Source: Gemmatimonadaceae bacterium (GTDB lineage Bacteria > Gemmatimonadota > Gemmatimonadetes > Gemmatimonadales > Gemmatimonadaceae). Taken from it: a stretch of 64,000 nucleotides of DNA. Position 1 is the stretch's first letter. Every line of letters begins with the position of its first letter. Under the pieces are notes generated by a model. That model had not been told where the DNA came from. It saw only the letters and a program-made list of their open reading frames with translations, and searched no databases. The stretch covers positions 14,941-78,940 of the forward strand of contig JBPCJJ010000062.1 in the NCBI GenBank assembly GCA_051005405.1. Reading direction: 5' to 3'. Shown here in pieces: positions 54,948 to 63,679 of this stretch. The position numbers and the translations under genes were made by a program.

Positions 54948-57900
54948 GTGGAAATCGGAGACGAGATCGAGTTCGAGGGCGTCGCTGACGCTCCGACGGG
55001 ACCCGCGCGCGGCCGCCGGCGAAGCAAGCCGAAAGCCGCCAAGCGCGCTGGCGATGGTCGGCCCACTAACGGGAATGGGTCGAAGCAGATTGAGCTGAGG
55101 CGGCTGCTGGCCGGGCTCAAGGAGCTTGGGGGCGGCGATTTCGGCGTCCGGCTCGCCGAAAGCTCTGATCCGATGATGAACGACATCTTCGCGGAGTTCA
55201 ACGCGATCGCCGAGCGAAACCAGGCGGTGACGATCGAGCTGCGGCGCGTAGCGACCACCGTCGGAAGCGAAGGGCGCATGCACGACCGCGCGTTCGTTCC
55301 CGAGGTCGAGGGCGGATGGCGCTCGATGGTCGGGTCAGTCAACTCCCTGATCACCGATCTGGTGCAGCCGACAACCGAAGTTGCGCGCGTGCTCACAGCG
55401 GTCGCCGAGGGCGATCTCAACGAGAAGATGCTCCTCGAGATGGAGGGGAAGCCGCTGCAGGGCGAGTTTCTGCGGATCGGCACTACCGTGAACACGATGG
55501 TCGACCAGCTCAGCGCCTTCGCGTCCGAAGTCACGCGAGTCGCGCGCGAGGTCGGAACCGAAGGACGTCTCGGCGGCCAGGCCGAAGTGCCGGGCGTCGC
55601 CGGCACATGGAAGGATCTCACGGACAACGTGAACACGCTCGCCGGCAATCTGACGAGCCAGGTGCGGAACATCGCGCACGTTACGACCGCGGTCGCCAAG
55701 GGCGACCTGTCGCGAAAGATCACGGTTGAGGCGAAGGGCGAGACGCTCGAGCTCAAGGACACGATCAACACGATGGTCGATCAGCTCTCCGCTTTCGCTT
55801 CCGAGGTCACGCGAGTCGCGAAGGAAGTGGGAACCGAGGGCATGCTCGGCGGCCAGGCAGAGGTGCCCGGAGTTGGCGGCACATGGAAGGATCTGACGGA
55901 CAACGTGAACGCGATGGCCAACAACCTCACCGGCCAGATCCGGAACATCGCGGACGTCACGACGGCGGTCGCCAAGGGCGACCTGTCGCGAAAGATCACG
56001 GTTGAGGCGAAGGGCGAAGTTCTCGAGCTCAAGAACACGATCAACACCATGGTGGACCAGCTCAACGGGTTCGCCTCGGAAGTGACGCGAGTCGCGAAGG
56101 AAGTAGGTACCGAGGGAATCCTTGGCGGGCAGGCGAACGTCCCCGGCGTGGCCGGCACGTGGAAGGATTTGACGGACAACGTGAACTTCATGGCGTCGAA
56201 TCTGACGGGCCAGGTTCGGAACATCGCCGACGTGACGACGGCCGTCGCGCGCGGAGACCTGTCGCGTAAGATCACCGCGGATGCGCGGGGCGAGATCCTG
56301 GAGCTGAAGAACACGATCAATACAATGGTCGATCAGCTTTCGGCGTTCGCTTCCGAAGTCACGCGAGTGGCGAAGGAAGTAGGAACCGACGGCACGCTCG
56401 GCGGCCAGGCGGAGGTGCCGGGAGTTGCCGGCACCTGGAAGGATCTCACGGACAATGTGAACACGCTCGCCGGTAACCTGACGAGCCAGGTACGGAACAT
56501 CGCGGACGTGACGACGGCGGTCGCGAAGGGAGACCTGTCGCGGAAGATCACGGTTGAGGCGAAGGGCGAGACGCTCGAGCTCAAGGACACGATCAACACG
56601 ATGGTCGATCAGCTTTCCGCTTTTGCCTCCGAGGTCACGCGCGTTGCGAAGGAAGTGGGAACGGAAGGCACGTTGGGCGGCCAGGCCGAGGTGCCGGGAG
56701 TCGGCGGCACCTGGAAGGATCTCACGGACAACGTGAACGCGATGGCGAACAACCTCACCGGCCAGATCCGGAACATCGCGGACGTCACGACGGCGGTCGC
56801 CAAGGGCGACCTCTCGCGCAAGATCACGGTCGACGTGCAGGGCGAAATTCAGGAGCTCAAGAACACGATCAACGACATGGTGGACTCGCTCAGAATTTTT
56901 GCCGGCGAAGTAACGCGAGTCGCGCGCGAGGTCGGTACGGAAGGACGGCTGGGCGGCCAGGCGGAAGTGCCGGACGTCGCGGGCACGTGGAAGGATCTCA
57001 CCGACAACGTGAACTTCATGGCGTCGAACCTGACGGGCCAGGTTCGGAACATCGCCGACGTGACCACGGCCGTCGCGCGGGGAGACTTGTCGCGCAAGAT
57101 CACGGCGGAAGCAAAGGGCGAGATCCTCGAGCTGAAGAACACGATCAACACGATGGTCGATCAGCTCAGCGGATTCGCGTCGGAAGTGACGCGTGTGGCG
57201 CGCGAGGTCGGCACGGAAGGCAAGCTCGGCGGCCAGGCGAACGTGCCAGGGGTCGCCGGCACATGGAAGGATCTCACGGACAACGTGAACACGCTCGCCG
57301 GCAATCTGACGAGCCAGGTGCGGAACATCGCGGACGTTACGACCGCCGTCGCGAAGGGAGATCTGTCGCGGACGATCACGGTCGAGGCGAAGGGCGAGAC
57401 GCTCGAGCTCAAGAACACCATCAACACGATGGTTGATCAGCTCTCGGCGTTCGCGGATGAAGTGACCCGGGTAGCGAAGGAAGTGGGCACGGAAGGAAAC
57501 CTCGGAGGCCAGGCAGAGGTGCCCGGCGTCGCGGGAACATGGAAGGATCTGACGGACAATGTGAACGCGATGGCGAACAACCTCACCGGACAGATCCGGA
57601 ACATCGCGGACGTCACGACCGCGGTCGCCAAGGGCGACCTCTCGCGCAAGATCACGGTCGATGTGCAGGGCGAGATCCTCGAGCTCAAGAACACGATCAA
57701 CACGATGGTCGATCAGCTCTCGGCGTTCGCCTCCGAGGTAACACGAGTCGCGAAGGAAGTAGGCACCGAGGGAATCCTTGGCGGGCAGGCGCAGGTGCCG
57801 GGCGCTGCGGGAACGTGGCGCGCGCTCACGGACAACGTGAACGCGATGGCGAACAGCCTGACGCTCCAGGTTCGCGCGATCGCCGACGTCGCGACGGCTG

Positions 57901-62384: not shown

Positions 62385-63679
62385 CGGACAGGGTCAACAT
62401 CCTCATGGTCGATGATCGTCCGGAGAACCTCCTGGCGCTTGAAGCGATTCTGGAGCCGCTGGGCGAAAACCTCGTGCGCGCGAATTCCGGCGAACAGGCG
62501 CTGCGCGCGCTCCTCGCGCTCGACTTCGCGGTGATACTGCTCGATGTGCAGATGCCGGGAATGAACGGACTCGAGACCGCGCAGTACATCAAGGCGCGCG
62601 AGCGATCAAAATCCATCCCCATCCTGTTTCTGACAGCGATCAATAAGGAGGATTCGTACGTCTTCAAGGCGTACGAAGTCGGGGCAGTGGATTACTTGTT
62701 CAAGCCGTTCGACCCCGAAATTCTCCGCTCGAAGGTCGCCGTATTCGTCGATCTCTGGCGCAAGCAGGAACAGATCAAGACGCAGGAAGAGCGGATCCGT
62801 GTCTCGGAGAAACGGGAGCTCGAGCTACAGCATCGTACGACGCTTCTCGAGACCGAGGCCCGGTCCGCCGAGGAGCTCGCTTCGGTGAACAACGAGCTGC
62901 ATCGCCGGCAGTTCGAGCTGGAGCGGGCCATTACTGCGCGAAGCCGCTTTTACGCCTCGATGAGTCACGAGCTTCGCACCCCGATCAATGCAGTACTCGG
63001 CTACAGCACTCTGATGCTCGACGGCATATATGGGGACGTCAACGAAAAACAGCGGGAAGGGTTGATGCGCACTCACCGCGCCGCGAAGCACCTCCTCGAG
63101 CTAGTCAACGACGTGCTGGACCTCTCCAAGATCGAGGCGGGCAAGATCGAGCTCGCGATGCAGCCGGTCCAGTTCCCGAGTCTCATCGACGATCTCTTCG
63201 TTACGGTCGCGCCGTTTGCGGCGGAGAACAAGACCGAGCTCGATCTGCGCATGGAAGGCGAGCCGATCACGATCGTGTCGGACCCTCGTAGAATCCGGCA
63301 GGTGCTGCTCAACCTGGTCTCGAACGCGATCAAATTCGGGGAGGGCAACCCCGTCAGGGTTCTGTGCAGCGCCGATCCCGACACGGAAGGCGGCGTGCAG
63401 ATCGACGTGATAGACTCCGGGGAGGGAATCGCACCCGACGACCATTCCCGGATCTTCGACGAATTCGTTCAGCTCGGGCAATCGGCGCAGCCGGGCACCG
63501 GCCTTGGCCTTCCCATTTCCCGAAGGCTGGTGGAGATGCTTGGCGGGAAGATGGAGCTCGAATCCGAGCTCGGCAAAGGGAGCCGGTTTCGCGTCATCCT
63601 GCCGCCCGGCAACACGAGGACCGCCGAGCCGGAGCTGGAGCCGGAGTTCGCCGAAAGCTCCGGCACGCCCGCCAGCTAG
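62381..63679 (+). CDS. Receiver-histidine kinase (REC - coiled coil - HisKA - HATPase)
   Basis: The ATG overlaps the cheB stop (ATGA). REC: ILMVDDRPENL ... LLDVQMPGMNG ... FLTA ... FKPF. H-box [19 protein letters not shown]. HATPase motifs NLVSNAIKF, DSGEGI, GTGLGLPISRRLVEMLGG. Confidence 0.85.
   Translation: MTDRVNILMVDDRPENLLALEAILEPLGENLVRANSGEQALRALLALDFAVILLDVQMPGMNGLETAQYIKARERSKSIPILFLTAINKEDSYVFKAYEVGAVDYLFKPFDPEILRSKVAVFVDLWRKQEQIKTQEERIRVSEKRELELQHRTTLLETEARSAEELASVNNELHRRQFELERAITARSRFYASMSHELRTPINAVLGYSTLMLDGIYGDVNEKQREGLMRTHRAAKHLLELVNDVLDLSKIEAGKIELAMQPVQFPSLIDDLFVTVAPFAAENKTELDLRMEGEPITIVSDPRRIRQVLLNLVSNAIKFGEGNPVRVLCSADPDTEGGVQIDVIDSGEGIAPDDHSRIFDEFVQLGQSAQPGTGLGLPISRRLVEMLGGKMELESELGKGSRFRVILPPGNTRTAEPELEPEFAESSGTPAS

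Follow-up and report, generated by a model that had tools for sequence, protein, structure and literature searches.

What do a CheR methyltransferase and a CheB methylesterase modify when they are encoded between two histidine kinases and no chemoreceptor is near? The question is raised by four same-strand genes in a 64-kb stretch of a contig from a soil bacterium of the Gemmatimonadaceae (the window), to which all statements of absence concerning the surroundings are limited. Adaptation through covalent modification by these two enzymes is a textbook matter for chemoreceptor arrays only. With domains called by Pfam and NCBIfam, the four genes are the following:

54948..60926, + strand: HK1, a soluble hybrid histidine kinase of 1992 amino acids (aa) (open reading frame [ORF], Pfam, NCBIfam)
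60911..61786, + strand: CheR-family glutamate methyltransferase of 291 aa (Pfam CheR_N and CheR)
61788..62384, + strand: CheB methylesterase/deamidase of 198 aa, catalytic domain only, without a receiver (Pfam CheB_methylest, E=1e-51)
62381..63679, + strand: REC-HK, a receiver (REC)-histidine kinase of 432 aa, with a receiver at aa 7-119, a linker, HisKA at 186-254, and HATPase_c at 301-409 (Pfam)

The four genes are translationally coupled and coinherited. HK1 starts with GTG just 3' of a Shine-Dalgarno-like GAGGAA, and CheR starts with a GTG at 60911, overlapping the HK1 stop by 16 nt; the identity of its 291-aa product to a recorded protein from a Gemmatimonadaceae metagenome-assembled genome (MAG) supports this start. 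A gap of 1 nt separates CheR from CheB, and CheB and REC-HK overlap by 4 nt (ATGA). These junctions of -16, +1, and -4 nt, together with synteny, bear out the single operon of four same-strand genes proposed in the initial annotation of the window, and Pfam agrees with the gene order and domain architecture given there, including the receiver-less CheB, in which CheB_methylest spans residues 6-181 and nothing else is found. REC-HK has no output domain according to Pfam. A promoter and terminator scan returned no promoter-like site, and the terminator-like matches were weak and internal.

Comparison across genomes shows that this operon represents, in the Gemmatimonadaceae, a signaling cassette of four genes that is ancient and laterally mobile. 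The CheR clade was surveyed by a pattern scan with a CheR alignment (A1) and one genome per GTDB species, which found at least 597 relatives; 80 loci were retained, with domains mapped by offline BLAST using the window proteins and the Escherichia coli Che proteins as probes. Synteny was counted in 60 well-flanked species-representative loci anchored on the cassette CheR clade. The test of conserved synteny of the four genes was strongly positive, with a kinase of the GAF-coil-HK-REC type beside CheR, on the same strand, at 57/60 loci. CheB is present at 44 of the 60 and a REC-HK-type gene, following CheB as it does in the window, at 45 or more, and kinase, CheB, and REC-HK occur together at 36. 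The order hybrid kinase-CheR-CheB-REC-HK is found at L001-L006 and most of L008-L090, with CheB ORFs of about 190-250 aa at related loci, and the same four genes with the 16-nt overlap of HK1 and CheR recur on three long metagenomic contigs.

The core of the cassette occurs in at least 15 phyla, the taxa being Gemmatimonadota, Acidobacteriota, Cyanobacteria, Sericytochromatia, Deinococcota, Myxococcota, Bdellovibrionota, Desulfobacterota, Actinomycetota, Verrucomicrobiota, Planctomycetota, Bacteroidota, Bacillota, and Alpha-, Beta-, and Gammaproteobacteria. In tblastn searches against plasmids, the cassette was detected on Allorhizobium and Sphingomonas replicons and a CheB-less version on a Deinococcus plasmid, and some of the cassette-bearing plasmids are conjugative. 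Kinase-CheR-CheB-kinase neighborhoods and CheB-CheR-kinase fusions, mentioned for other genomes in the initial annotation, do exist, as these plasmid loci and as seven fusion sensors, respectively. Few multi-gene signaling units in this analysis are spread as widely as the cassette, which occurs in Gram-positives, cyanobacteria, Bacteroidota, and proteobacteria as well as on plasmids.

To what extent does chemotaxis machinery accompany the cassette? Within the window, a Pfam scan of 40 other ORFs gave no match to MCPsignal, CheW, CheA, or HPt and none to a receiver standing alone, and a six-frame tblastn search of the same 64 kb with E. coli Tar, Tap, CheW, CheA, and CheZ and a rhizobial methyl-accepting chemotaxis protein (MCP) returned only HATPase cross-matches, in agreement with the earlier claim that MCP, CheA, CheW, CheY, and HPt are missing from the 64 kb. 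At the 60 well-flanked loci there is no CheW and no CheA P1 or P5 domain, and neither CheA nor CheW was found at any cassette locus tested, at the ORF or the DNA level. An MCP gene lies within 10 kb at 1/60 of the well-flanked loci and at 2 of all cassette loci tested, each time on the opposite strand. For the Pseudomonas cluster, a passage in PMC4951495, citing Garcia-Fontana 2013, reports that a chemotaxis role of CheR/CheB was ruled out. Because CheW and CheA are absent from the loci, MCP genes are rare, and a chemotaxis role is reported to be excluded in Pseudomonas, the cassette is shown not to be a chemosensory array.

The cassette varies at its sensory end and in its CheB. The sensors of 55 orthologs without a poly-HAMP array are CHASE3 (38), 4HB_MCP_1 (12), dCache_1 (3), and TarH (2), usually followed by one HAMP; CHASE3, 4HB_MCP, Cache, and TarH are chemoreceptor-type sensor modules. 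No CheB was detected within 10 kb, tblastn included, at 13/13 Bacillota and 2/2 Deinococcus loci:

CheB-less, CheR-bearing loci in Bacillota: L020, L025-L027, L029-L031, L033, L034, L036, L038, L047, and L057
CheB-less, CheR-bearing loci in Deinococcus: L008 and L035

Many of the Bacillota cassette kinases have a single receiver and a shortened coil. In Bacteroidota (L053, L065, L066, L073, L075, L089, and L090) REC-HK lies 5' of the hybrid kinase and a single-domain receiver precedes CheR, and in an Alcanivorax group (L040 and L044) a 160-aa receiver gene resembling a split CheB stands between CheR and CheB. At L076, from a Sericytochromatia MAG, one 814-aa ORF (8985-11429) joins the CheB catalytic domain to REC-PAS-PAS-HK; this fusion hints at a possible link between CheB and the REC-kinase, although it is a single case and an assembly error is possible.

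The core cassette is already known, from clusters of the cfcABCDE/bmsA type and from the AskA family, and the locus is a variant made of known parts, a cfc-type cassette with an Ask-type soluble sensor; the combination of poly-HAMP and CheR/CheB is what is new. In Pseudomonas putida, the CHASE3/GAF hybrid kinase CfcA is needed for activation of the diguanylate cyclase CfcR, cfcB and cfcC are a CheR/CheB pair, and CfcD carries a receiver. CfcR, an output tied to cyclic di-GMP, biofilm, and the salt response, is unlinked to the cfc cluster. The same cluster is present in Pseudomonas brassicacearum (genes 3082-3079) and Pseudomonas alkylphenolica (BmsA), where its mechanisms are said to be still unexplained. 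L082, the P. putida locus, matches the published cfcABCDE architecture; together with five further Pseudomonas loci it shares with the window both gene order and core, namely, GAF-EEL coil-HisKA/HATPase-REC x3, CheR, receiver-less CheB, and REC-kinase, and the CheR of the Pseudomonas cluster is about 50% identical to that of the window. The Pseudomonas kinase has a CHASE3 sensor, whereas HK1 has a soluble array of about 21 HAMPs and no CHASE3; CHASE3 is a mark of the Pseudomonas subtype and not of the whole cassette. The output is known in Pseudomonas (CfcR); no REC-GGDEF-EAL regulator of the CfcR type was found within the 64-kb window.

The other known relative concerns the sensor. A kinase-associated poly-HAMP family was described in 2026, with crystal structures of HAMP segments of Myxococcus AskA (PMC13446029). 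In Myxococcus xanthus, the REC-kinase AskC is encoded immediately 3' of AskB, the Rec3 domain of AskA binds the receiver of AskC in the bacterial two-hybrid assay, and Ask has effects on development and on responses to ambruticin and glycerol. Judging from its domain order and array, HK1 is a member of this family of "class III-like" hybrid kinases: both proteins have a soluble array of alternating canonical and noncanonical HAMPs, followed by GAF, DHp/CA, and receivers, and both have a downstream REC-kinase partner (AskB-AskC there, REC-HK here). HK1 aa 40-327 are colinear with PDB entries 9trk_A (E=6.7e-101) and 9trj_A (E=4.4e-53), whose chains, named "histidine kinase, Gcn4p," are presumably the AskA HAMP segments, going by the description in the paper and the chain name. 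The two Ask papers make no mention of CheR or CheB; in the window and in a Pyxidicoccus relative (L095), unlike in AskB-AskC, CheR and CheB are inserted between the two kinases.

HK1 is organized in the order poly-HAMP, GAF, EEL coil, HisKA, HATPase, and REC x3, and its parts are as follows:

55086..57977, + strand: poly-HAMP array, aa ~47-1010, about 21 HAMPs (Pfam HAMP and HAMP_2, 92-aa periodicity)
58077..58490, + strand: GAF, aa 1044-1181 (Pfam GAF_2, E=2e-19)
58503..58823, + strand: conserved coiled coil from GAF to DHp, aa 1186-1292 (heptad conservation), the candidate methyl-accepting element
58830..59543, + strand: kinase core, HisKA aa 1295-1362 and HATPase_c aa 1410-1532 (Pfam)
59754..60083, + strand: REC1, aa ~1603-1712, acidic pocket E1609-N1610-D1611, acceptor D1653, S1684, K1703
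60126..60467, + strand: REC2, aa ~1727-1840, canonical, with E-D-D, D1776, T1806, and K1828
60564..60905, + strand: REC3, aa ~1873-1986, canonical, with D-D-D, D1923, T1953, and K1975

Pfam marks 10 stretches each of HAMP and HAMP_2, and after three N-terminal HAMPs the region is an exact 92-aa di-HAMP unit repeated ~9.5 times, with canonical and noncanonical HAMPs alternating inside the unit; at the DNA level it is a 276-bp tandem repeat (55491-57898, 8.7 copies, 79% matches). Every third 92-aa unit is most alike, a higher-order pattern that suggests recent duplication of 3-unit blocks. Array length is variable among orthologs, with HK1 ORFs of about 1,480-2,600 aa at poly-HAMP loci, and the HK1-type gene is frequently split or truncated in assemblies. 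We consider HK1 soluble because no 19-residue window reaches typical transmembrane hydrophobicity (maximum Kyte-Doolittle value, 1.67), and no transmembrane-grade segment was found in it.

GAF is found in 57/60 cassette kinases, and the kinase core of the window can be aligned with 64 orthologs, among which the H-box and the receiver Asp residues are invariant; the phospho-His, H1304 (nt 58857-58859), lies in an H-box conserved in 65/65. All three HK1 receivers have the acceptor Asp, the Ser/Thr, and the Lys. The initial annotation had noted an E-N-D pocket in REC1 next to two canonical receivers, and residue alignment confirms this; the family consensus for REC1 is E-D-D, the second acidic position is N in 8/65 orthologs, and the first is Glu in 64/65 for REC1 and 59/65 for REC2. 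REC3 and the receiver of REC-HK (36% identity, E=6e-18) are mutual closest relatives within the operon.

Both enzymes look catalytically competent, judging from conserved residues. The S-adenosylmethionine (SAM) motif and basic RRR helix of CheR are invariant in alignment A1, and the CheB triad S11/H38/D130, aligned to E. coli S164/H190/D286, is intact. The window CheR belongs to a cassette-specific clade distant from chemotaxis CheR: its identity to the CheRs at the 80 retained loci is 46-75%, and it has thousands of close homologues at about 80%, whereas E. coli CheR is 29% identical to it. On the NCBIfam CheR equivalog model it scores 80, far under the cutoff of 435. Likeness to canonical chemotaxis lies in the homologous CheR (CheR_N and SAM domain) and homologous CheB catalytic domain with its triad, in an acidic, heptad-periodic helix as candidate target, and in the chemoreceptor sensor modules (CHASE3/4HB, Cache, TarH, and HAMP) used by most cassette kinases. 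The difference is that the cassette has no MCP signaling domain, CheA, or CheW, that its CheB has no N-terminal receiver of the kind that regulates canonical CheB, and that a HisKA-type hybrid serves as its kinase, in direct fusion with the sensor.

Where, then, might the enzymes act? The best candidate for the methylation target is likely the N/Q-E-E-L coil between GAF and the phospho-histidine of HK1. The initial annotation had proposed the kinases themselves as the substrate, naming the poly-HAMP kinase or the REC-HK coil; the poly-HAMP array and the REC-HK coil are not supported, and it is the coil from GAF to the H-box of HK1 that tracks CheR. A target should be conserved wherever the enzymes are, and for this reason the other two are poor choices: the poly-HAMP array is unlikely, as other sensors replace it in most cassette members, and the REC-HK linker differs in sequence between phyla. 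The coil, in contrast, is conserved across phyla at about the level of GAF and the receivers (43% identity to the window, versus 11% for the post-kinase linker). Its core (aa 1207-1260, nt 58566-58727) contains two copies of the motif QQ-EEL-xxx-N-EEL-EE[QK], at 1214-1228 and 1242-1256, in the heptad register a=N/Q, b and c=E-E, and d=L, and 59-64 of 65 orthologs retain N1222, N1250, L1211/1218/1225/1246/1253, Q1214, Q1242, and E1245.

The length of the coil is constrained as well. The distance from GAF to the H-box is quantized in heptads (73, 80, 87 ... 129 residues) and equals 3 mod 7 in 72/74 orthologs; insertions and deletions therefore preserve helical phase. Triplets of the form [EQ][EQ]L average 4.5 per 110 aa in the coil, versus 0.4-0.6 in REC-HKs and unrelated kinases of the same loci, and at least two EEL occur in 74/74 CheR-anchored kinases. 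The accessions PF28159, PF28019, PF26769, PF27881, and PF28175 are annotated on many HK1-type proteins (P0121-P0240); none of the five was reported in our local Pfam scan of the window HK1, and one of them might model the coil region.

Relatives without CheR provide a natural comparison. Poly-HAMP kinase relatives with or without CheR were sampled at 57% or higher identity to the kinase core, and their coil lengths form classes spaced by multiples of seven, with a mean of 2.4-4.6 EEL in the full-length classes (93 proteins) and of 0-1 in the short ones (19 proteins). CheR adjoins both full-coil members checked (L095 and L096), and context look-up and tblastn found no CheR beside any of the four short-coil members L098, L099, L100, and L101, the whole of the CheR-less sample. 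The shortened coils of these four retain 0-1 EEL and arose by three different deletion patterns. L099 retains three receivers, lacks CheR and CheB, and has lost the EEL segment. L100, on a metagenomic contig, has the genomic context of the window (RecQ/molybdopterin oxidoreductase/RlmL ... sucA); it has lost CheR, REC1, REC2, and 56 coil residues and kept CheB and a REC-PAS-HK, and has the appearance of a naturally occurring partial knockout. The pattern is the one expected if EEL heptads are maintained because of CheR, and the match is correlative. Coil length alone was rejected as a marker of CheB/CheR, since Bacteroidota kinases with CheR and CheB match some CheR-less kinases in length and three-receiver Bacillota kinases have a full coil but no CheB.

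A parallel is seen in CheB-CheR fusion sensors, where again no MCP is present and the two enzymes are tied genetically to a sensor kinase. The CheR domain is followed by a dense (S/T)xN-E-E-L heptad coil, with 3-7 EEL per 70 residues, in seven of seven such fusions examined, which come from four classes (Bacteroidota and Alpha-, Beta-, and Gammaproteobacteria). Their CheR domains are 30-34% identical to the window CheR. These proteins differ from the cassette in that the enzymes are fused in cis and lie N-terminal to the coil, PAS replaces GAF, and there is no REC x3 tail; their outputs are a PAS-kinase or EAL.

A mechanism to which we give about an even chance is that this cassette copy with its AskA-type sensor uses CheR and CheB to tune the coil helix of HK1, with a phosphorelay running through the receivers and REC-HK. 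Input to the poly-HAMP/GAF region would set the conformation of a continuous signaling helix from GAF to DHp and so control autophosphorylation at H1304; phosphoryl groups would pass to the receivers of HK1 itself, and the signal would reach the REC-kinase through contact of REC3 with its receiver, as reported for Myxococcus AskA/AskC, and go from there to an unlinked output. CheR would methylate, and CheB demethylate or deamidate, Glu/Gln at the exposed b and c positions of the N/Q-E-E-L heptads, the candidate residues being E1210, E1217, E1224, E1245, and E1252. Methylation would shift the equilibrium for H1304 autophosphorylation, that is, the set point of the kinase, which amounts to adaptation. 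Feedback on the receiver-less CheB could come from conformation-dependent access to its substrate or from a receiver in trans. In models of E. coli, conformation-dependent substrate availability is sufficient for adaptation. The analogy with CfcA (salt), Ask (glycerol and ambruticin), and the fungal group III kinases suggests that the input could plausibly be osmotic or ionic. The broader proposal is that such kinases form a methyl-accepting class spread over at least 15 phyla, in which a dedicated CheR, mostly accompanied by a receiver-less CheB, has the NEEL coil as its substrate, in cis in the case of the fusions; this is tentative and in our judgment falls somewhat short of even.

Several observations weigh against a methyl-accepting coil. 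The MCP consensus [ASTG][ASTG]xx[EQ][EQ]xx[ASTG][ASTG] has no match in HK1 or REC-HK, while the control recovered 4/4 Tar sites, and the EE pairs of the coil precede the core Leu, whereas in Tar they follow it; given the missing consensus and this different order, another mode of CheR recognition would be needed. The AlphaFold2 (AF2) monomer model of GAF-coil-kinase is mostly helical and holds no information on dimer packing; it gives helices at 1164-1230 and 1238-1322 rather than one continuous helix, with a low-confidence break at aa 1231-1237 (TLRTSEE, nt 58638-58658, predicted local distance difference test about 45). The break falls between the two motif copies, lies inside the segment that CheR-less relatives have deleted, and could be either a monomer artifact or a true hinge. 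Bacillota kinases with three receivers keep a full EEL coil despite having no CheB, and as CheB-less cassettes exist, some of them with such a coil, reversible adaptation is not universal. The CheR-less sample numbers only four, of which three also lost REC1 and REC2, confounding the loss of the coil, and the comparison of Q at E/Q-variable coil positions with CheB presence suffers from small numbers and phylogenetic confounding. E/Q-rich signaling helices could be conserved for purely mechanical reasons. Other P. putida cfc mutants kept the CfcA-dependent crinkly-colony phenotype, according to an unpublished remark of the authors, and no biochemical report of histidine kinase methylation by CheR was found in the literature searched.

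Another possible site of action of CheR and CheB, which we hold to be unlikely, is on the receivers, at the acidic pocket or another surface, or on the REC-kinase, where modification would gate phosphotransfer within the cassette. There is a precedent for methylation of a receiver protein that is not an MCP: PhoP of Salmonella carries methylation at E8/D9, E107/E108, and R112, the last of which was traced to CheR (PMC8546571). As in the proposal made here for HK1, a CheR modifies a two-component protein other than an MCP; that case differs in involving a chemotaxis CheR, an unlinked response regulator, and an arginine, with no dedicated operon-encoded CheR/CheB pair. The conserved Glu at the first acidic position of REC1 and REC2, the loss of both receivers in three of the four CheR-less relatives, and the CheB-REC-HK fusion of L076 would also fit action on receivers. 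Yet L099 lost its EEL segment together with CheR and CheB while keeping three receivers, single-receiver Bacillota cassettes still keep CheR, the REC-HK linker is unconserved between phyla, and the NEEL coil of the CheB-CheR fusions, which has no receiver beside it, is left unexplained.

It is improbable that CheR and CheB modify an unlinked output regulator or HPt protein, or are mainly structural, with the EEL coil merely a signaling helix. The operon has neither an output domain nor an HPt, which implies that essential partners are encoded elsewhere, as CfcR is in P. putida, and the strict heptad quantization of coil length shows the coil to act mechanically. A purely structural role sits poorly with the conserved catalytic residues, however, and neither version explains the loss of EEL together with CheR or the NEEL coils of the fusions. 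Service to conventional chemoreceptors elsewhere in the genome, with the position between two kinases carrying no mechanistic meaning, is more improbable still: the intact catalytic motifs are typical of chemotaxis enzymes and MCPs may exist elsewhere in the MAG, but the synteny statistics (a GAF-HK-REC kinase at 57/60 loci from 15 or more phyla, the reading frames overlapping) make such service unlikely, no CheA or CheW is near any locus, the clade is far from chemotaxis CheR, and the passage on the Pseudomonas homologues in PMC4951495 reports chemotaxis as ruled out.

The idea that the HK1 coil accepts methyl groups is thus supported by inference from sequence comparison, and the analysis narrows it to defined residues in a helix of ~55 residues, natural CheR-less variants, and the parallel of the CheB-CheR fusions. 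The studied relatives of the cassette control biofilm formation and cyclic di-GMP in Pseudomonas and development in Myxococcus, and no report on the targets of the cassette CheR/CheB was found in the literature searched. If the kinase is the methyl acceptor, adaptation, or memory of background, would be generally available to two-component systems without MCP, CheA, or CheW. The NEEL coil would then be a portable module for methylation, different from the helix that is methylated in MCPs, and there would be a mechanistic handle on the poly-HAMP kinases, with their resemblance to the group III kinases of fungi.

Around the operon, an RlmL-like methyltransferase lies 5' of HK1 and the E1 component of 2-oxoglutarate dehydrogenase 3' of the operon, a context shared by relatives. 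Other neighbors in the window include Ku/LigD, glutamine synthetase III, an extracytoplasmic function (ECF) sigma/anti-sigma pair, a TonB receptor, and RecQ. Further histidine kinases are encoded at 40923-42674 (Pfam scan) and 27749-29287 (BLAST mapping); the former has a 345-aa N terminus without a domain match. The region 26000-29300, which contains a small PAS ORF (27237-27713) and the histidine kinase ORF at 27749-29287, has a GC content of 0.57 versus about 0.64; both ORFs escaped GC3-based gene calling. The ORF at 11347-12261 on the - strand matches Pfam RPA, "Replication initiator protein A" (E=8e-19), and from this match a plasmid, a chromid, or an integrated element is a possibility for the contig. 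At 1771-5532 on the - strand, adjoining genes for Ku and a three-domain LigD (phosphoesterase, ligase, and primase-polymerase) form a complete bacterial nonhomologous end-joining pair.

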